Shown here piece after piece: positions 5,764 through 63,056 of a stretch of 64,000 bases of DNA (its first letter is position 1; each line of letters begins with the position of its first letter). A program made the translations under genes and the position numbers. Source of the DNA: Candidatus Nanohaloarchaea archaeon (lineage in GTDB: Archaea; Nanohalarchaeota; Nanosalinia; Nanosalinales; Nanosalinaceae); the NCBI GenBank assembly GCA_013343275.1, contig CP046106.1:1-64000 (forward strand), read 5' to 3'. A model generated the notes under the pieces. The model did no database searches. It was not told the DNA's origin and saw nothing but the letters and a program-made list of their open reading frames with translations.

Positions 5764-6320
5764 TGTTCTTCACCTTCTTCCTGTTCTTCTGATTCTTCTG
5801 TGTCTTCGGTTTCCTCTTCAGCTTCTTCAGTTTCTGTTTCTGTCTCTTCTTCCTGTGTTGGTTCCGGAAGCTTTACTTCTACTTCTTTCTCCTCTTCCTG
5901 TGTAAGCATGTAGCCAGGAACGTTCACTTTCTGACCGTCTACAAAGACGTGGCCGTGGTTCACTAGCTGACGTGCTTCTTTAGCTGTGTCGGAGTATCCT
6001 CTTCTGTTGACTGCTGACTGCAGTCTTCTGTCAAGGATGTCTGTTACGTTAAGTGTTAGTATTTCTTCAAGGCCTCCGTCTTCCCGGATAAGTCCAAGTC
6101 TGTTGGCTTTTCCGATGATCTCTTTTCTTCTTTCCTCGTCGTCTGAGGATGCAAGTTTACGGGCCTCTCTTCTGAATGCTCTTAGTTCGCTCTGAGCTTT
6201 GTAGATTTCTCTCTTGTTCTTGAGACCGTATTCTTCCATTAGCTGGTCTTCTTCCTGAATTCTTTCTTCGCTCCAGCCTTCGCTTGGAGTCTCGTACTGT
6301 TTTGTTAGCTTCTTAACCAT
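5760..6320 (-). CDS. rps4: 30S ribosomal protein S4
   Basis: [27 protein letters not shown]. Confidence 0.97.
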
Positions 6321-6326
6321 TGTTTA

Positions 6327-6803
6327 TCACTCTTCGTCGCCGGACGGTTCTGCTTCGTCCTGGATACGTGCTCTTGATACACCGATTTTACCGCCGGATC
6401 TGAACGAGGACTTCGTCTTCTGTCCACGTACGGGTAGTCCGATCTCGTGTCTCCAACCTTTGTAGGAATCGATCTCTTTCAGACGTCTGATATCGAACTC
6501 TTTCTTAAGTTCAAGATCTGATTCGATCAGATGCATGTTGTCTCCTTCGTCTCTGTCCTTCCTCCTGTTCAGAAGCCATTCCGGAAGGTCAAGACTGTCA
6601 GGATTCTTCAACTTCTCCTCAACTTCATCGATAGATTCATCGTCCATGTCGCCTATCTTCTTATCTTCCAGACCCATCTCTTCGGCAACAGCGTTAGCGT
6701 ATGTGCTACCGACTCCTTTTAGGCCTGTCAAGGCTTTATCTACTGTTTTCGTACCATCGATTCCGGTTCTTGCAATCCTTACAATCTCTTTGGTTTCTGA
6801 CAT
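6327..6803 (-). CDS. rps13: 30S ribosomal protein S13
   Basis: SYKGWRHEIGLPVRGQKTKS. Confidence 0.97.
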   Translation of the reverse strand: MSETKEIVRIARTGIDGTKTVDKALTGLKGVGSTYANAVAEEMGLEDKKIGDMDDESIDEVEEKLKNPDSLDLPEWLLNRRKDRDEGDNMHLIESDLELKKEFDIRRLKEIDSYKGWRHEIGLPVRGQKTKSSFRSGGKIGVSRARIQDEAEPSGDEE

Positions 6804-6915
6804 GTTTACCCGTACCAAGCAAATCCACTTTAAGTTTTATAAACATATGATCGGAGGGGCCTGACCTGCACTGAAAAGGTCAAAGCCGCTCCCCGCTCAA
6901 AAAAGATCTCTCTTC

Positions 6916-7203
6916 TCAGCGCTCTTCTGTCTTCTTGATAAGATGCCATCCGAAGTCTGTCTGGACTGGATCGGATACTTCTCCTACATCCATTTCGAAG
7001 GCCTTGCGTTCGAAAGGCTTCACCATGTCACCTCTCTCGAAGAAACCTAGGTCGCCGCCGTTGTCACGTGAAGGGCCTTCAGATTTCTCCCGGGCTAGAT
7101 CTGCGAACGATTTATCGTCGTCTCTCTCCAGCTCCAGCTTGATCTGTTTAGCATGCTCTTCGTTGTCAACAAGTATGTGTGATGCACGTACTTCCTTTGC
7201 CAT
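6916..7203 (-). CDS. Parvulin-type peptidyl-prolyl isomerase
   Basis: VRASHILV, GGDLGFF, MVKPFE, VQTDFGWHLI. Confidence 0.95.
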   Translation of the reverse strand: MAKEVRASHILVDNEEHAKQIKLELERDDDKSFADLAREKSEGPSRDNGGDLGFFERGDMVKPFERKAFEMDVGEVSDPVQTDFGWHLIKKTEER

Positions 7204-54343: not shown

Positions 54344-55261
54344 ATGAAGACTATTGGAGTTCTCTGGGATGAAGAAGTTACCTGGGATGGAGAAAAACCT
54401 TTCGATGGCCAGTCAAATGAAGCCTACGGATATTTTTCTGAAAGGGCTGAAGATAAGGATGTGAGGCTTGTTCAGGCCCAGTATCACTGGTATGATGATG
54501 GATCTCTGTCTCAGGGCTGGGTTTACGAGGAAGGTTCTTGGCAGAAAGTGGAGGATGTCGAGCTCGATGGGGTATTCGATAAGTTCCACTTTGATGAGGA
54601 TACAAAGGCTCTCAAGCAGGAGATTAGTGAGACTATAGGAATCCTGAATAATCCGGAGCTGGAGGAGCTTTGCAAGGATAAACTCCTAACTTATGAGCGG
54701 TTTCCTGAGAAGATGCCGGAGACAAGGATTTTCTCCGATGACAATGCTCAGGAAATGCTGGAGGAGTACGGCAAGATTGTCCTGAAGCCTCGTTACGCTT
54801 TCGGTGGCAAAGGTATTCATATTGTAGCGAGCGAAGAGGAAATACCTGAAATAGAAGATGATTACATCATTCAGGAGTTTATTGACAGCAGCGGAGGCAT
54901 CGAAGGCATAGTTGAAGAAACGCATGACCTAAGAGGCATAGTAGTAAACGGTGAACTAGAGGCAGGTTATGTCAGATACAGCGACGGCGAGATAAGTAAC
55001 GTGGCGCAGGGAGGCTCACAGGATGCAGTTAGTCCGGAAGAATTCCCTGAGAAGGCTCTGGATCTCATTGAGTCTGTTAACGACGAACTAGAGTTCAGAC
55101 CGTGTCTTTTCTCCGTCGACCTTTTCTTCGATGGAGAAGGAAACCCTTGGATAGTTGAGCTGAACTCGAAGCCTGGAATAGGTTTCTACGGTGATGAAGA
55201 AATGAAGAAGCAGCTTGTGCCGGTGATGGATGGTCTTGTAGAGGCTTTCAAACAGCTCTAG
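54344..55261 (+). CDS. ATP-grasp ligase (RimK/glutathione synthetase/YheCD-like)
   Basis: DKLLT, LKPRYAFGGKGI, IQEFI, HDLR, SNVAQGG, VELNSKPG. Confidence 0.9.
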   Translation: MKTIGVLWDEEVTWDGEKPFDGQSNEAYGYFSERAEDKDVRLVQAQYHWYDDGSLSQGWVYEEGSWQKVEDVELDGVFDKFHFDEDTKALKQEISETIGILNNPELEELCKDKLLTYERFPEKMPETRIFSDDNAQEMLEEYGKIVLKPRYAFGGKGIHIVASEEEIPEIEDDYIIQEFIDSSGGIEGIVEETHDLRGIVVNGELEAGYVRYSDGEISNVAQGGSQDAVSPEEFPEKALDLIESVNDELEFRPCLFSVDLFFDGEGNPWIVELNSKPGIGFYGDEEMKKQLVPVMDGLVEAFKQL

Positions 55262-56289
55262 TTTATCATTTCTTTTGCTTCTTCTAGGTCTTCGGTCAGT
55301 CTCTCGGCAATATTCAATCTTATTTCCTTTGCTTTCTCTCTACTGACTTCTTCAGGTATATCCAGGTTCTGTGAGACAGGTGAGAATTCTGAAGGGTTAA
55401 TGCCCATTTCCTTGATGTATTCTCTGACTTCTTCTGACTCAAGGCCTTCCTTTATCGCTTTTTCTGATGCATTTTTCACTTTCTGGAACTCTGGCAGTTC
55501 TGATCTCTTCTTTTTCTGTACTATCGGTTTGACAGCTTTCACGATTTTGATTACCTCGGTAAGAAGTGTTGTATCAGGGGCCCGCCATTCAACTGTTGGG
55601 TAGTCTTCCCTCAGTTTTACCGGGGTCCAGACCGAGTTCTCCGGTTGGAAGAATCTTTCAAATCTTTCTGTTTCTATGCCTTTCTGCTCTGCCTTGTTCT
55701 CGAATTCTTCGAAAAGTTCCTCTCTTTTTTCACGCCACTCCGTGATTGAATCCATGTATGGCCAGAGCTCTCTCTGTTCGGGGAACGCTCCGCAGGCTTT
55801 GTGCCTGTAAATTTTGTTTCTGCATCCGTCCGCCAGGTGCTTTCTCTGGTATCTCGGCGATGAGTTCGTCAGTGCAGAGAGCGGATCCATGGCTGTCAAG
55901 GTGTTGAGCTGTCTGAGAGAGTCCTCTTTTTCAAAATGGATGTGGAGGCCAGCAGTCCTGCCAGCATGTTTTACTTCAGGCCCTATGACTTCCTGCTCTA
56001 TCTGGAATCTCTCGGATTCGTATACTTCGACCTCTCCGGAGTTTAGAGGTGTTCCAAGGGGTACTATTCTTTTGCCATCTTTTTTGGCTAGCTCTACAAG
56101 TATCTCTGTTTTTGATATGGCCTCTTTCAGAAGTTCATCCATGTCTTCGTGCGGTTCTGTCTGTATTTCTATCATTGACCGTGAGAATTCCTGTGATGCA
56201 AAGTAAACTCTTTCTGCTACTGGCTTGGCGTAATCAAGTTCTCCTTCCTCGTCTATGACCCAGAACTCCAGTTCGAGGCCTGCTTTCAA
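55258..56289 (-). CDS. Glutamate--cysteine ligase family 2 (GCS2/YbdK-like carboxylate-amine ligase)
   Basis: GLELEF, IEIQT, AGLHIH, NSSP, TVEWRAPD. Confidence 0.88.
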   Translation of the reverse strand: MKAGLELEFWVIDEEGELDYAKPVAERVYFASQEFSRSMIEIQTEPHEDMDELLKEAISKTEILVELAKKDGKRIVPLGTPLNSGEVEVYESERFQIEQEVIGPEVKHAGRTAGLHIHFEKEDSLRQLNTLTAMDPLSALTNSSPRYQRKHLADGCRNKIYRHKACGAFPEQRELWPYMDSITEWREKREELFEEFENKAEQKGIETERFERFFQPENSVWTPVKLREDYPTVEWRAPDTTLLTEVIKIVKAVKPIVQKKKRSELPEFQKVKNASEKAIKEGLESEEVREYIKEMGINPSEFSPVSQNLDIPEEVSREKAKEIRLNIAERLTEDLEEAKEMIN

Positions 56290-57170
56290 CTCTGATTCGC
56301 CTCCTTCATCGCTCTCTCGTGCATTCTCTCGACAAGTCTGAGAATAATGTTTTCGCCTACAGTTTCGTTAATTGCTCTGTAGAGGCCGAATGCACTGTTC
56401 AGCTCCAGTACGTAAACGCCGTCGTCGGTCTCTATTACGTCTACTCCGGCTATATCGAATCCTGTTGCTCTTACTGCTGTGAGCGCTGCCTGTTTCATTT
56501 CTGGTGTTAGGTCGGCTTCTTTTCTCTCACCACCTTCTGCTACGTTTGACCGCCATTCGTCTCCGCTGCTGGATCTCTGATATGCGTATACGTCTTCCCC
56601 CATTACAATTACTCGTGTGTCTGTTCCTCCGTGCTCCTGGTACTCCTGCAAACAGATATCCTGTTCAAAGGATTTCATCGTGTCCATTACGGGCTTTAGC
56701 TCGTTTTCCGAGCTTGCTCTCATCACTCCCTGTCCTCCGGCTCCTTCAATAGTCTTCATGATGATCGGATACCCGAGTTTCTCCGCGGCCTCTACTGCTG
56801 TCTCGGGAGAGATCGTGTAGAAGCTGTCCGGCACATTTACTCCGTTTTCTGCCAGTATCTTCATACTGTAGAACTTGTTGTTGGAGTAGGAGAAGGACTC
56901 GTCTTCGGCCTGTGTCACGACTCCGGCCTTGTTGAGAACCTCTACCAGGTGTTCGGAGAAGAGTGCGTCCTGATCGTTGGTTCTTACATACGCTGCGTCG
57001 AACTCTGTCAGATCTGTATCTTTGTAGAGTACTTTACTCCCTTCTTCACTGTGTATAAGCTTGAGGCCATCTACCGGGGCTGCAAGAACAGAGTCGAATA
57101 TTTCTTCGGCCTCCTCTATTATCAGCTGGTGTGTGGTAGATACTTCGCCATAGATTATTGCCAGTTTCAT
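56286..57170 (-). CDS. RimK/LysX-family ATP-grasp ligase
   Basis: NKFYS, GYPIIMK..GAGGQGV, QEY, DTRV, WRSNVAEGG, GVD, ELN. Confidence 0.93.
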   Translation of the reverse strand: MKLAIIYGEVSTTHQLIIEEAEEIFDSVLAAPVDGLKLIHSEEGSKVLYKDTDLTEFDAAYVRTNDQDALFSEHLVEVLNKAGVVTQAEDESFSYSNNKFYSMKILAENGVNVPDSFYTISPETAVEAAEKLGYPIIMKTIEGAGGQGVMRASSENELKPVMDTMKSFEQDICLQEYQEHGGTDTRVIVMGEDVYAYQRSSSGDEWRSNVAEGGERKEADLTPEMKQAALTAVRATGFDIAGVDVIETDDGVYVLELNSAFGLYRAINETVGENIILRLVERMHERAMKEANQS

Positions 57171-57174
57171 TTTC

Positions 57175-57993
57175 TTAGGCCTCTTCTCCCTGTTTTATAG
57201 TATCTGCTATGATTTTGTACACGTCTTTCCCGGAGATTTCTGCATATGTATCTAGATCAGGGTTCGGGTTTACATCGATTACCTGTTCGTCTCTTATCAG
57301 TACTTCTGCGGTCTGAGTTCCAAGCGACTTTTTTGCATCCAGCACAAGGTCCTCTATGCTGTTTGGTATATTCGAGTACCTTAGATTGTCCTCACCGATC
57401 TCCCAGTCCTCAGAGGTGTCTTCAAGCGAGACCACTTCCTCTCCCGCGACAAGACAGCGGTATTTCGTGCCTTTCGAGAATTCGTGGAAAAGAATAACGT
57501 TCTCCCCGTACTCCGTTCCTTCAGTGAAACCCCCAATCTCTTCAACAGTGTCTATCTTCTTCTCCTCTGATAGCTCAAACCCTTCGAATTTTCTGGCTAC
57601 TAGAGGCCCTTTCAGATAGTTCTCGAGATTTCGGGCAGATTTTTCATCGGCTACAACTGCTGTCTTCGGAGCAGATACGTTTTTCTCGTGCAGAACGCTG
57701 TATAGATAGTTTTTCTTCGACATTGCGAAAAAGGAGGTTGAGGAGTAGTTTACCGGTATTCCTTTCTCCTCGATAGTCTCAAGCAGAACTCTTCCGAAAA
57801 CTGCATTTTTTTCAGGAATATTTGCATAGACAGCATCGAAGTTCTCTACAGGCGCTCCACCTATCTTTACATCTGAATTATTGTCTCTCACCTCTGGAGC
57901 TACCTCCTCGATACTTGCCGTCTCCACTTCTTCAAAATGCTGGTTTAACTCCTGTGTAGCGTCTTCTTCGTCAGTTATCTTCAGTAGTTTCAT
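57175..57993 (-). CDS. Degenerate RimK-like ATP-grasp protein
   Basis: Colinear with neighbour but Gly-rich loop and SN..GG loop lost; ExN replaced by DVN. Confidence 0.75.
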   Translation of the reverse strand: MKLLKITDEEDATQELNQHFEEVETASIEEVAPEVRDNNSDVKIGGAPVENFDAVYANIPEKNAVFGRVLLETIEEKGIPVNYSSTSFFAMSKKNYLYSVLHEKNVSAPKTAVVADEKSARNLENYLKGPLVARKFEGFELSEEKKIDTVEEIGGFTEGTEYGENVILFHEFSKGTKYRCLVAGEEVVSLEDTSEDWEIGEDNLRYSNIPNSIEDLVLDAKKSLGTQTAEVLIRDEQVIDVNPNPDLDTYAEISGKDVYKIIADTIKQGEEA

Positions 57994-59530
57994 TGTTGTC
58001 CTCCCCCTGTTTCGAATCCGGCATCCAGATCCGTGTCAACTTCTCACTTGAACCCCATTTCTCCATATACTCCTCCATTGATGGTGGTGTGGAGTTCTTC
58101 AAAATACGGCCCTGTCGCAGAATCTTTCTCAGTCGAGCCTCTAATGTCTTCGACAGCTCGTCGTAGTAGCTCTTGTCTGCGTAGATCAGGTCGTTCTTGA
58201 TCCTCCAGTGTGCTGTTGTTCCTTTTGGTGCGACCACGATGTATCCTCTCTTGTGGCCGAACTCTGCCATGGCTTCTTTCAACTGTTCTTTGTTGACATA
58301 GTACACTCCTCCGTTGGTCCCGCTTGGATCAAGAATCAGTATTTCATCGCCCTCTACTCCTACTGATAGTACGAAGTGGCCTGCAGTGGCTTCTGGGAAT
58401 ATCTCTGGCTTGTAGAAGTTTGGCACGATCAGTGCGCCGTCGTTGAACCAGGCCTTGAATTCGTCGTCTAGATCAGTTATCTTGTCGTAGCCAATCCAGG
58501 CCGTCTTCACTTCGTTGTTAGTAAGTTCTTCTACTGAGTCCATAAGCTCTTCTTCATCGGCGCCTTCACCTTCCTCTACGTTTGCTTTCTCTCCGATCTC
58601 CTTCTGGTCGTGTTTGTATCCAAAGACTTCAAGCGCCATCTCCATTGATGCAGGACCGCAGTATGATGGGTCCTGTGCTACAAAGTAGCTTGTTATTTCC
58701 TCCAGAGTGTCGAGGTCGCTACGTGTCCTCTTGAACTTGAGGTTTGAGTCCATTATCTGGCTGTTAGGAGCCAGTACTGTGAAACCTGAGTTGGTGTCGA
58801 CTGTTGTGCTGAATAGCGAGACATCTTTGATCTCTCCCGTCTCGTCGTCGATCTTGACTTCCTCTCCAGGCCTTACAATCCTCGAGTTCTTGAGGTATAC
58901 TCCTGCCGCAAAGTTCTCGAACAGGTCTTTGAAGCCGTAGAACAGCAGGCCTGCGATAAGGAATGCTACGGCCCATGATGATGCTGTTACCAGTTCATTG
59001 ATCGTGCTCTGTGCGATCCCTAGCTGTCCGAGCACTATCTGCAGCAGTACCAGGTAGAGGAAGCCTTTGATCAGCGCTGAAACCGCCTTGAATGCGTTGA
59101 CCGATAGGCCTGCTTCCCGGAAGTAGCTCCTTACTCCTACTGTTTTCAGGAAGTCCTCGATGAATCTGGTGAATACGTTTATTGCGATGACTCCAAGGAT
59201 TGCTACAAGTATCCCTGTCAGTATTTCAGGAATGTACGTCGTGGTCTGCGCTATTATAGTATCTGTTAACGATGAATTCAGGTAGAAAAGTGCTGCGGTG
59301 ATTACTGCGCCGTCAAGCAGGTAGGAAATGTACTGCAGTCTCTGTCTTTTCTGCTCAACGTCTTTTTTGGTGGCCTCATCGTTTCTGAGTATCCACAGCC
59401 GGTTGTACATCATGTTGAAGCTCTTGACCGCTAGGTGGCCTAATACCAAAATCAGAAGTGTTACGGCTACTCTGATGCTTGTGTTGCTTGACATGATGAA
59501 AGCTAGTGCAGAATCTAGAATACCGGCCAT
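57971..59530 (-). CDS. MscS mechanosensitive channel fused to a papain-fold (C39/phytochelatin synthase-like) domain
   Basis: N-terminal TMs, KDLFENFAAG..PGEEV..G....LFST..PNS (MscS); Q.PSYCGPAS, GHFV, ILDP (Cys-His-Asp). Confidence 0.85.
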   Translation of the reverse strand: MAGILDSALAFIMSSNTSIRVAVTLLILVLGHLAVKSFNMMYNRLWILRNDEATKKDVEQKRQRLQYISYLLDGAVITAALFYLNSSLTDTIIAQTTTYIPEILTGILVAILGVIAINVFTRFIEDFLKTVGVRSYFREAGLSVNAFKAVSALIKGFLYLVLLQIVLGQLGIAQSTINELVTASSWAVAFLIAGLLFYGFKDLFENFAAGVYLKNSRIVRPGEEVKIDDETGEIKDVSLFSTTVDTNSGFTVLAPNSQIMDSNLKFKRTRSDLDTLEEITSYFVAQDPSYCGPASMEMALEVFGYKHDQKEIGEKANVEEGEGADEEELMDSVEELTNNEVKTAWIGYDKITDLDDEFKAWFNDGALIVPNFYKPEIFPEATAGHFVLSVGVEGDEILILDPSGTNGGVYYVNKEQLKEAMAEFGHKRGYIVVAPKGTTAHWRIKNDLIYADKSYYDELSKTLEARLRKILRQGRILKNSTPPSMEEYMEKWGSSEKLTRIWMPDSKQGEDNNETTEDN

Positions 59531-59570: not shown

Positions 59571-60761
59571 TTATTCCTTATCGATGATTTTTCCATAGCC
59601 GATAAGTCGCCATCTGGACCCTATTTGACGGGAAATAGCGATTCTGTCGTCTTCCTCGGCGCAGATAGGGACTTTCAGATCAAGTTTAACCTTCTTCCCG
59701 GCCTGCGTTACAATGCCTGCAGACTTCGAAGTTCCTGCGTTAAGCATCAATGGCTCGTTCTCCTTGATATTTTCGATCTCCTTCTCCTGCTCGGAACCAA
59801 CGGCTCGATCCATAAGGTTGACCTCTACGGTGATGTTCTCGGTCGTCTCTGGAAGAGTACCTTCTTCGCCCAGAATATTGCCTGAAAGACCGTCGGACTT
59901 AGCCATCGAAGGATCAAGATCTGTCTCGATTGCTAGAAGACCTCCTGGAGTCCCTTTCTCTACAGGCTGTCCTCCATGCATAATGCTTTTGATCTCAGTC
60001 TCTACCGTTCTCCATTCTTCGTCCTGATTGATTCCGGGACTGAGTTCGACTTTGTCACCGACCTCAAGCTCCCCTTCAACCAGTGAACCGCCTACTACCC
60101 CACCATGGAGGTCTTCGGGGCTTGTCCCTGGCTTGTTGATATCGAAGCTTCTGGCGACAAGCATCTTGCCGTCGGCCTCGAGATCTCTTTCAGGAGTAGG
60201 AATTTCCTCGTCGATTGCTTCAAGAAGTGCATCGATATTGATCTCCTGCTGAGCGCTGATAGGGATTACAGGGGCGTCTTCAGCTACTGAGCCCTCTACA
60301 AACTCCTGGATCTGTTCGTAGTTCTCACGGGCCTCTTCCTCTGAAACCAGATCGATCTTGTTCTGTACAATTACAATATTTTCTACTCCGATGATATCGA
60401 GCGCTGCAAGGTGTTCCCGGGTCTGAGGCTGAGGACATTCCTCATTGGCTGCGATAACTAGAATTGCACCGTCCATAATTGCAGCTCCGGAAAGAACGTT
60501 TGCCATCAGTGTTTCGTGGCCTGGAGCATCTACGAGAGAAACAGTTCTCTCTTCTTCGCCATTACTTTTTACATTCAGTTCGCCGTCTTCGTCTCTGTAG
60601 TATGTGATATCGGCGTATCCGATCTTGATAGTGATTCCTTTCTTCAGTTCTTCGCTGTGTTCATCAGTCCATTTTCCGGAAAGAGCTCTAGTTAAAGTAG
60701 TTTTTCCGTGGTCTACGTGACCTACAAGACCGATGTTAACTTCAGGTATTTGATCGCTCAT
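59571..60761 (-). CDS. eif2g: Translation initiation factor 2 gamma
   Basis: [32 protein letters not shown]. Confidence 0.98.
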
Positions 60762-61074
60762 ATACTAAATCATCCTCGGAAACAGTTATAGTTCTCCCGC
60801 CAATTTCGACATCATAGTTTATCTGGCTCTGAGGAGAAAGACTGGTAAAGAAGTTTTCGAAAGGCCTAGTGTCGGTGACTACTACCTCTTCTTCGTTGTA
60901 CTGCTCTTTATCTCCTATGTATCTGGCAGTATCGCCTATCTCGTAATCCAGAAATAGTGCAGATTCTAGGCCGTCCTTTATTCCTATCTGATCGAAGAAG
61001 GCATCGGCCTTGTGGCCTTTATCCTCGATCTCGGAAAGTGCTGCATCAAGGTAGTACTCTGTGACTAGGCCCAT
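60742..61074 (-). CDS. Hypothetical acidic protein
   Basis: 110 aa ORF packed between rps6e and eif2g. Confidence 0.65.
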
Positions 61075-61559: not shown

Positions 61560-61631
61560 AGGCAGAAACTTTTTTGAATCCAAAAACCTTTGACCCTGAG
61601 TTTTTATTCAACTAAAACCCTAACCAGTGAT

Positions 61632-63056
61632 ATGAGGGCCTCAGTAATCTCCCAGATAATAGGAAGGTTTCTACAGGTCTTCGCTGTGGTGATTGCAGCT
61701 CCTGTAGCGGTTGCGATGTACTATGGGGAGGCCACAGTACAGTCATTTCTCTTCGCATCTGCATCTGCAATGGTTGTAGGAATGTTTCTCTCATATGTAG
61801 GTTCTTCTAGTGAGCCTACTACTTCTGAAGCTCTCTACGCTACAGTAATGGGTTGGTTTATAGCAGTGTTTGTCGGTGCAATACCGCTCCTGGGGTATAT
61901 GACAATGATGAATGCCGTATTTGAGGCTACGGCGGGCCTAACTACTACTGGGATTTCCATGTTGCTGGCGCCTGAGGTGTTACCTAAATCTATCCTTTTC
62001 TGGAGGGCGTTCATGCAGTGGGTAGGAGGTCTTGGAATACTTACTTTCTTCATAGCAGTCATCCGTGAATCCGGAGGTATCTCCAGAAGGCTTTTCTCTG
62101 CAGAGGCCCATAAGACAGATCCTGGGAGCATAAGACCGTCTCTAAAGAAATCGATAATAGAGCTCTGGAGGGTATATGGATTCCTCACTATGCTGATAAT
62201 AGGTATATATATAGGCCTTGGAATGTCGGTATTCAACTCATTCGCCCACGCATTTACTGCAATATCTACGGGCGGCTTCTCGACTGTAGGAGCCAGCATG
62301 GCAGCCTTCTCAGCACAGGTTCAGGCAGCAACAGTACTGTTCATGTTTGTAGGAGGAGTCAACTTCGTTCTGCTGTACAGATTTCTGAGAGCAGATGTCA
62401 GGCCTCTATGGGAGAACTCCGAGTTCAAACTCTACACACTAATCTTCCTCGTCATAACAGGAATAATGGGGATCGAACTCCTCGGCAAGGGAATGGCTCC
62501 GGCCTCCGCACTTCTTAACTCCTCCTTCACCTCCGCTTCAGTGCTATCATCCACAGGCTTTGCTACAGTAGGAGTTACATCTCTCTCGGTAGCACTCCAG
62601 GCCCTTTTCCTCGGAGGAATGTTTGTAGGAGGTTCTCTGGGATCTACCGCAGGAGGTATAAAGATCTTCCGGCTGAAAGCAATGTTTGAACTGGTTAAAA
62701 CTCGTGTAAAGGGTTATTCTCTGCCAGAAACTGCTATAAATGAGGCCAAGATCGATGGAGAGATACTTTCGGGCTCTGTGGTTAGAACTATCTCGGTACT
62801 GTTCTTTGTATGGATATCAGTCATATTTGTTGCTACTCTGGGCGTGCTGGCTGTGGAGGACGTAAGCTTCATGGCTGCTCTCTCTGGAACTATCTCTGCA
62901 GCAGGTAACATGGGTCCTGTGTACATGGCTGGTGAGAATATGGTCGCACTGTCGCCTGTAACTAAAAGCATCTGGGTGGTCGTCATGCTTGCGGGCAGAT
63001 TGGAGATGCTTCCTTTGCTTGCATTATTTAATAAGAGAATTCTCAAAAACAAGTAG
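61632..63056 (+). CDS. trkH: TrkH potassium uptake membrane protein
   Basis: GLTTTG, QWVGGLG, STGGF, GSTAGGIK, GNMGP, GRLE. Confidence 0.96.
   Translation: MRASVISQIIGRFLQVFAVVIAAPVAVAMYYGEATVQSFLFASASAMVVGMFLSYVGSSSEPTTSEALYATVMGWFIAVFVGAIPLLGYMTMMNAVFEATAGLTTTGISMLLAPEVLPKSILFWRAFMQWVGGLGILTFFIAVIRESGGISRRLFSAEAHKTDPGSIRPSLKKSIIELWRVYGFLTMLIIGIYIGLGMSVFNSFAHAFTAISTGGFSTVGASMAAFSAQVQAATVLFMFVGGVNFVLLYRFLRADVRPLWENSEFKLYTLIFLVITGIMGIELLGKGMAPASALLNSSFTSASVLSSTGFATVGVTSLSVALQALFLGGMFVGGSLGSTAGGIKIFRLKAMFELVKTRVKGYSLPETAINEAKIDGEILSGSVVRTISVLFFVWISVIFVATLGVLAVEDVSFMAALSGTISAAGNMGPVYMAGENMVALSPVTKSIWVVVMLAGRLEMLPLLALFNKRILKNK

Follow-up and report, generated by a model that had tools for sequence, protein, structure and literature searches.

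What does a mechanosensitive channel do with a cysteine-peptidase fold in the place of its cytoplasmic cage? The question is raised by a gene on the minus strand of the 64,000-nucleotide (nt) stretch of DNA analysed here (the window; positions 1 to 64,000 of contig CP046106.1, Candidatus Nanohaloarchaea archaeon), in which an MscS-type channel core is continued by a papain-like domain resembling phytochelatin synthases (PCS) and C39 peptidases. MscS-family channels are textbook osmotic safety valves whose cytoplasmic cage is seen as a sieve and a gating element; to our knowledge, no MscS relative carries an enzyme fold in its cage, and none was found in a full-text literature search. Our analyses suggest that the protein may be a peptidase anchored in the membrane as the partner of a RimK-type acidic-peptide system, positioned beside a solute pore, a reading to which we assign a probability of about 0.4.

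The gene is a single open frame with an ATG start and no interruption. Its translation contains every string quoted by a first-pass annotation of the sequence, which had described an MscS channel running without a stop into a Cys-His-Asp domain: YFVAQDPSYCGPASMEMAL (residues 282-300), LIVPNFYKPEI (367-377), GHFV (384-387), ILILDP (397-402), YVNKEQLKEAM (411-421) and KRGYIVV (427-433). A full-length model built on 94 sequences (predicted local distance difference test, pLDDT, 80.6) shows five long membrane helices, the helix TM3b, a beta-domain, a papain-like domain at residues 288-435, three helices at 439-494 and a disordered tail, and in Foldseek it matches MscS and Alr0975 alike. The latter is the 'primitive' phytochelatin synthase of the cyanobacterium Nostoc (NsPCS; PDB 2btw, 2bu3, 6th5 and 6tho).

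The N-terminal half belongs to the MscS family (E. coli MscS, YnaI; PF00924/PF05552; TC 1.A.23), with which it shares the TM1-TM2-TM3a/TM3b core and the beta-domain. MS_channel_2nd (PF00924) matches residues 202-264 with 39.2 bits against a Pfam cut-off of 20.2, residues 110-267 align to residues 33-179 of E. coli MscS (E 7e-7), and Foldseek pairs the beta-domain and core with MscS 4hwa (E 7e-8), YnaI being also among the fold matches. The membrane helices follow in the order of two extra N-terminal ones, TM1, TM2 and TM3a, with TM3b behind them (model helices at 17-49, 55-84, 86-131, 144-170, 174-199 and 201-216); YnaI likewise has five. The hinge of the pore helix TM3b, N206-x-A-A-G210, is recognizable from the alignment of 'enfaagv' with 'lsnlaagv' of E. 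coli MscS, and in 94 sequences N206 is invariant and A208, A209 and G210 are each conserved to at least 90%. In the translation, loops 36-64 and 124-146 are rich in K and R and loops 85-102 and 171-182 contain neither, so that the positive-inside rule predicts an N-out/C-in topology; because of this loop pattern and the homology to MscS, the papain-like domain is predicted to be cytoplasmic.

Past the beta-domain the resemblance to MscS ends. No Pfam match to the MscS alpha-beta domain was obtained in the protein, and after residue 266 the models show a papain-like fold plus helices and nothing else. Therefore, the usual lower cage and its side portals, formed in MscS by the alpha-beta domain and the C-terminal beta-barrel, have given way to a papain-fold domain with a basic helical module, as the first-pass annotation had supposed. 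We assume that the fusion protein acts as a channel, and it would presumably assemble as a heptamer. The same 0.92-Mb genome contains three more MscS-like genes, which lack the peptidase domain (Table 1).

The identity of the new domain was established by several comparisons. Peptidase_C39_2 (PF13529) matches residues 285-402 with 30.1 bits (Pfam cut-off 24) and Peptidase_C39 (PF03412) residues 285-419 with 25.9 bits (cut-off 22), both families being of clan CA, whereas Phytochelatin (PF05023), at residues 275-424, reaches only 18.9 bits and stays under its cut-off of 24.9. When a profile of 44 family members was compared with 177,635 distinct PDB sequences, the sole match was Alr0975 (E 0.004), with Q-x5-CG, GH, the D of 'vvDPs' and the 'L..AM...RG[FY]' tail all in register, which bears out the motif spacing proposed beforehand for phytochelatin synthases. 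In this alignment, Gln286 falls on the Gln of 'FVTQvNQAYCG' and Cys291 on the Cys of 'AYCGVAS'; the domain thus combines a papain fold with Gln, Cys, His and Asp at the catalytic positions, as in C39 peptidases, and its catalytic Cys-His-Asp is in register with a solved phytochelatin synthase of the same fold. An AlphaFold2 model of residues 262-519, made from the 44 family members (pLDDT 80.7; predicted template modelling score 0.81), is uncertain in its first 12 and last 24 residues only. Its top Foldseek match is again Alr0975 (E 8e-8 to 1e-6, 187-203 columns, 19-23% identity), followed by PeiR, ComA, PCAT1, LahT and papain-like toxin domains; in the VIA structural comparison 162 residues align to Alr0975, and PeiR and ComA score equally high. 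As structural neighbours, PCS, C39 and PeiR are statistically tied. The domain also differs from Alr0975 in being tethered to a channel, in having a shorter stretch from the Cys helix to the sheet, and in its C-terminal helical module, which Alr0975 lacks. Consequently, the earlier assignment as a gamma-glutamyl transpeptidase or peptidase is supported as regards the papain-like PCS/C39 fold and is not supported as regards transpeptidase activity itself, given the sub-threshold Phytochelatin hidden Markov model (HMM) and the three-way tie.

The fusion is real, old and phylum-wide, which removes the concern that it might be an assembly artefact absent from relatives. A first homology search (E<=0.001) returned 205 relatives, of which the best 120 are 50-91% identical to the query and full length (496-533 residues), with the exception of P0057, a 344-residue piece covering 65% of the query, and the named relatives among these 120 belong to Nanohaloarchaea. 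With the cytoplasmic region as the query, 64 of the phylum's 70 genomes were each found to have a single copy; this covers 27/28 high-quality genomes and 29/32 genera. Among 1.84 billion representative proteins, 52 representatives matched at E<=1e-30; 44 are 436-544 residues long, with the match in their C-terminal half, and the remaining eight are 141-379 residues long. Below this set, from E 6e-11 on, the matches are to small C39-type peptidases of a generic kind and to one phytochelatin synthase. Several contigs carry the cassette under other taxonomic titles. The record L048, titled as a Colwellia polaris metagenome-assembled genome (MAG), encodes TrkH, S6e, eIF2-gamma, the channel-peptidase and both RimK genes, groups inside Nanohaloarchaea and looks mis-binned into a bacterial MAG. 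The cassette is also present in hypersaline-sediment records titled as Aenigmatarchaeota MAGs (L038-L042, L044) or as a Nanobdellati archaeon (L046); in the tree, L038-L041 and L044 form a clade sister to Nanoanaerosalina/Asbonarchaeum (the truncated L042 and L046 were left out), and for the six records titled Aenigmatarchaeota the phylum assignment may no longer be current.

The catalytic residues have a different history from that of the scaffold. The Cys-His-Asp domain had been described as intact, which appears correct for the window's gene in its alignment with Alr0975 and does not extend to the whole family: Gln-Cys-His-Asp is complete in 34 of the 51 full relatives, and Cys and/or His, often together with Gln, is gone in 17. 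Counted singly, Gln is kept in 37, Cys in 38, His in 36 and Asp401-Pro402 in all 51, the combinations that include Gln being QCHD (34), QCND (2) and QNSD (1). Asp401 is likewise invariant in the 94-sequence alignment, as are the non-catalytic G304, W361, G429-Y430, R443 and W502, whereas Cys291 and His385 are not. On an unrooted tree of 48 rows (the truncated L037, L042, L046, L049 and L051 were left out, as was L008, whose row was removed from the alignment for a stop in its 3' part), the Cys/His state needs at least three changes, and the pair is present in every deep-branching clade and in the clade of the window's gene. As the deep-branching clades all keep the pair, loss is the more likely direction of change and would have happened at least three independent times. 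With Cys/His dispensable in a third of the relatives, catalysis is probably not the core function of the family; because the scaffold, Asp401 and the operon outlast Cys/His, the conserved role is probably binding, docking or scaffolding, with catalysis probably retained in most lineages, including that of the window's gene. An in-frame stop or a disrupted 3' end of the channel-peptidase gene was observed in L008 (around 6099-6935) and in contigs G039:C89 and G026:C58 (TGA in both of the latter genomes), and these could be sequencing errors or decay.

The neighbouring genes encode ligases. At 52 of 53 related loci the channel gene is succeeded, in the same orientation, by homologues of ORF272 and RimK294; the lone exception is truncated by a contig end, and the trio is kept in loci L038-L044 despite the missing upstream eIF2-gamma/S6e/TrkH block. 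In the window, the last 23 nt of the channel gene overlap the start of ORF272, ORF272 and RimK294 are separated by a 4-nt gap, and the stop of RimK294 overlaps the start of the GCS2 gene by 4 nt; of 47 loci, 43 show an overlap of channel gene and ORF272, with a length of 23-32 nt in 40 cases. The gene arrangement suggests that the channel gene is the first of a tightly packed, translationally coupled operon. RimK294 is a RimK-family alpha-L-glutamate ligase (PF08443, E 2e-36; PDB RimK 7qyr/5zct, E 1e-30) and exceeds the cut-off of TIGR00768 (rimK_fam) with 157.7 bits versus 143.4; it scores 65.6 bits against the glutathione synthase model. ORF272 has no Pfam hit at E<=0.01 and only 42.4 bits against rimK_fam, under the same cut-off, and hhalign relates it to the RimK294 family with a probability of 99.6. 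Because its Gly-rich loop, its R-S-N motif and one metal-ligand position (the N258 equivalent) are missing, it is probably a degenerate, non-catalytic RimK paralogue and likely serves as an adaptor. Two further ligases are accessory: the GCS2 query matched in 13 of the 70 genomes of the phylum, in each case no more than about 3 kb from the channel gene, and the third ATP-grasp gene occupies the same convergent position in 29 of 53 loci. A RimB-type peptidase (PF05618) gave no match in this 96.5%-complete genome, in a search that was positive in 2 of 14 control genomes, and the LysW carrier was not found in a search positive in 4 of the 14. A LysX/ArgX-type amino-carrier pathway was rejected on this ground.

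Behind the papain fold lies a helical module (residues 436-504; model helices 439-445, 461-476 and 483-494) in which R443 and W502 are invariant and W442 and W492 nearly so. It was matched solely within its own family among the 1.84 billion representatives, and a protein atlas look-up with residues 430-506 gave best scores of 0.76-0.81, which is chance level. The module carries a net charge of +5 (family median +4), mostly from helix 458-480, in an otherwise acidic protein, and may plausibly be a docking surface for an acidic partner or ligand. After the module, many members end in a similar acidic motif (DE-x-T-E-D-N). This motif is the alternative reading frame of the conserved ORF272 N-terminus, M-x-L-L-x-I-T, and is gone exactly at the loci without the gene overlap; being thus dual-coded, and absent where the overlap is absent, the tail motif needs no function of its own, and its candidacy as a substrate of the ligases or the peptidase is weakened.

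How might these parts work together? Archaea do not have the bacterial ribosomal protein S6, a difference from the host of RimK and RimB, and an MscS relative of Corynebacterium exports glutamate. According to the excerpted text of PMC11957051, RimB binds RimK and removes the glutamates that RimK has added, and the rlo operon of Pseudomonas aeruginosa, involved in hypoosmotic stress tolerance, combines a RimK-like ATP-grasp protein, a membrane protein with an inactive transglutaminase (papain-superfamily) domain and glutamate-cleaving peptidases. As in RimK-RimB and RloABC, a RimK-type ATP-grasp ligase is here encoded with a peptidase, and as in Rlo, which in that excerpt is itself genetically linked to hypoosmotic stress, a membrane protein carries a papain-superfamily domain that may be inactive. 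The differences from what is excerpted there are that the peptidase is a cysteine peptidase here and a retropepsin in RimB/Rlo, whose family PF05618 was not found in this genome, and that an MscS core stands in place of the seven-transmembrane protein of Rlo, with the domain predicted to be cytoplasmic rather than periplasmic as in RloB.

On this analogy, and starting from the observed domain identities, fold, residue conservation, operon linkage and distribution, we infer that the cytoplasmic domain would be the membrane-anchored partner of the ligase pair and would bind a short acidic peptide built by the ligases, most likely an oligo-glutamate or a gamma-glutamyl peptide. Where Cys and His are present, the window's lineage included, the domain would cut or transfer this ligase-made peptide, and the reaction would take place directly beneath a pore able to vent small solutes, so that turnover of an anionic peptide or glutamate pool could be tied to membrane tension and osmotic state. 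That no alternative RimK partner (RimB) or substrate (LysW) was found in the genome counts in favour of this proposal. A bolder form, to which we give a small chance, is that tension on the MscS core allosterically switches a ring of seven Cys-His-Asp domains and the docked RimK pair, interconverting glutamate and oligo-glutamate or gamma-glutamyl peptide and releasing what is formed; Nanohaloarchaeota would then possess an osmostat of their own that works by polymerisation, and their channel would be the first of the mechanosensitive kind to have a catalytic cage.

Several observations weigh against the ligase-partner proposal. The repeated loss of Cys/His in 17 relatives while the operon stays means that peptide cleavage cannot be the indispensable function of the family. 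The pore-lining TM3a contains bulky aromatics and aligns to E. coli MscS with gaps. The net charge of the papain domain is -21, typical of the acidic proteome, and disfavours the binding of poly-glutamate, in contrast to the positively charged groove of RloA described in the excerpt of PMC11957051. Furthermore, it is the gene overlap that suggests co-transcription of the channel and ligase genes, and a stable gene order means less in very small genomes that rearrange slowly than it does in large genomes, a caveat partly offset by the trio's survival at loci with different flanks (L038-L044).

The loss of Cys/His agrees with an alternative hypothesis that we consider unlikely, albeit one to be taken seriously, namely that the domain is a non-catalytic cage and docking platform, likened to the inactive C39-like domain of HlyB-type ABC (ATP-binding cassette) transporters or the inactive transglutaminase domain of RloB. 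It would wall the vestibule and provide a binding site, Cys/His would be an ancestral leftover in the course of being lost, and the protein would be a specialised osmotic release valve. However, the retention of Gln, Cys, His and Asp in two thirds of the relatives, including the deep-branching clades and the window's clade, indicates selection on catalysis there, and the three ordinary MscS-like genes are available for plain valve duty. Enzymatic activity of a more specific kind is postulated in a decidedly unlikely second alternative, a phytochelatin-synthase-like gamma-glutamyl-peptide hydrolase or transpeptidase: a gamma-glutamyl dipeptide formed by the GCS2 ligase would be lengthened by an ATP-grasp ligase, much as glutathione is synthesised, and the C-terminal residue of the product would be removed or transferred by the channel-tethered papain-like domain. 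Alr0975 is the sole PDB sequence match, with its catalytic residues in register, and also leads the Foldseek list, where it has the longest alignment; the GCS2 gene lies within the cassette in 13/13 genomes that have one, and RimK294 has a further match, to the ATP-grasp domain of glutathione synthetase (E 8e-14). Against this stand the sub-threshold Phytochelatin HMM, the equal VIA scores of PeiR and ComA, the far better match of RimK294 to RimK than to glutathione synthase, and the empty GCS2 query in 57 of 70 genomes, most of which still have the channel-ligase trio.

A third possibility, which we hold to be highly improbable, is a protein-tail cycle, in which the RimK-type ligases would add C-terminal glutamates and the papain-like domain would trim them, the targets being the channel's own acidic tail or eIF2-gamma. 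RimK and RimB act in this manner on ribosomal protein S6 (excerpt of PMC11957051). The channel protein does end in a disordered acidic tail, and short tails are limited to rows without Cys/His (7/16 versus 0/32 with them); however, this link between tail and catalysis rests on about two or three events, and the tail motif, being the other frame of the ORF272 N-terminus, vanishes without the gene overlap. The gene for eIF2-gamma lies directly upstream, 40 nt off on the same strand, an arrangement found in 40 of 53 loci, and the ATP-grasp protein CDC123 binds eIF2-gamma in eukaryotes (excerpt of PMC4431377). This adjacency is lost in L038-L044, where the trio is kept, and it may thus be mere synteny. 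The first-pass annotation had, finally, drawn an analogy to C39-ABC exporters, which we could not sustain. In the C39 domains of such exporters (ComA, PCAT1, LahT; inactive in HlyB), the peptidase is N-terminal to an ATP-driven transporter, whereas here it follows a passive channel core on the C-terminal side; the neighbours, which are ATP-grasp and GCS2 ligases, eIF2-gamma, S6e and TrkH, include neither an ABC transporter nor a gene for a double-glycine leader peptide, and the conserved partners are RimK-family ATP-grasp ligases. The corresponding hypothesis, that the domain cleaves a double-glycine leader and the peptide exits through the MscS-like pore, would require a small precursor gene, for which the abutting or overlapping genes of the cassette leave no space, and the MscS pore, which has no energy source, lets through ions and small solutes; we give it next to no credence.

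Table 1. Coordinates of the channel-peptidase gene, its parts and other genes mentioned in the text (positions in the window unless a contig is named).
Feature	Position	Strand	Basis
MscS-like channel + papain-fold (PCS/C39-like) fusion gene	57971..59530	-	519 aa + stop; open reading frame list, translation, Pfam
Five predicted membrane helices + TM3b amphipathic helix (aa 1-216)	58883..59530	-	Model helices, MscS alignment
MscS beta-domain (aa 217-266)	58733..58882	-	PF00924, model strands 224-255, Foldseek
Linker helix + papain-fold domain (aa 267-435), replacing MscS alpha-beta domain + beta-barrel	58226..58732	-	PF13529, PF03412, AlphaFold2 model
Gln286 codon, oxyanion-hole position	58673..58675	-	Codon checked; aligned to Alr0975 Gln
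Cys291 codon, nucleophile position	58658..58660	-	Codon checked; aligned to Alr0975 Cys
His385 codon	58376..58378	-	Codon checked; 'GH' aligned to Alr0975 'GGH'
Asp401 codon, then Pro402	58328..58330	-	Codon checked; conservation in relatives
Family-specific helical module (aa 436-504)	58019..58225	-	Conservation, model helices, charge
Disordered acidic tail (aa 505-519 + stop)	57971..58018	-	pLDDT below 50; last 23 nt overlap next gene
ORF272, divergent RimK-family ATP-grasp paralogue	57175..57993	-	No Pfam hit; hhalign to RimK294 family
RimK294, RimK-family alpha-L-glutamate ligase	56286..57170	-	PF08443, TIGR00768, PDB RimK matches
GCS2/YbdK-type carboxylate-amine ligase, TTG start, accessory	55258..56289	-	PF04107, 48.1 bits vs cut-off 21
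Third ATP-grasp ligase (YheCD/RimK-like), convergent, accessory	54344..55261	+	PF14398, 50 bits
eIF2-gamma	59571-60761	-	
110-aa open reading frame	60742-61074	-	
TrkH-type potassium transporter	61590-63056	+	PF02386
Ordinary MscS-like genes	G000:C1:470062-470481, 344688-344948, 494931-495341		Open frames 295, 265, 201 aa

Two further features of the surroundings were recorded. The gene for a TrkH-type potassium transporter lies just upstream of the S6e and eIF2-gamma genes, and occupies the same place in 35 of 53 loci; its closeness, as a potassium uptake gene, to a pressure-valve gene may be significant or coincidental. For the 110-residue open reading frame lying between S6e and eIF2-gamma, neither Pfam nor tblastn against the 53 related loci gave a hit; it may be a non-gene or lineage-specific.

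Both domain families and the pairing of RimK with a peptidase are already known. For the fused architecture and its fixed operon, and likewise for RimK in archaea of this group, the full-text literature search turned up no paper; a 2009 amidoligase survey by Iyer and colleagues, which reportedly covers related ATP-grasp/transglutaminase cassettes, may bear on priority. The natural series of Cys/His-bearing and Cys/His-less versions offers ready-made experimental controls. If the ligase-partner proposal is true, a channel cage rebuilt from a cysteine-peptidase fold and hard-wired through overlapping genes to peptide ligases would represent a new coupling of membrane mechanics to metabolism. Nanohaloarchaeota have genomes of about 1 Mb and live on haloarchaeal hosts at saturating salt. 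Since the channel-peptidase gene is one of the few lineage-specific and near-universal genes of these small-genome symbionts, it is likely to matter for their response to osmotic change or their handling of amino acids derived from their hosts.

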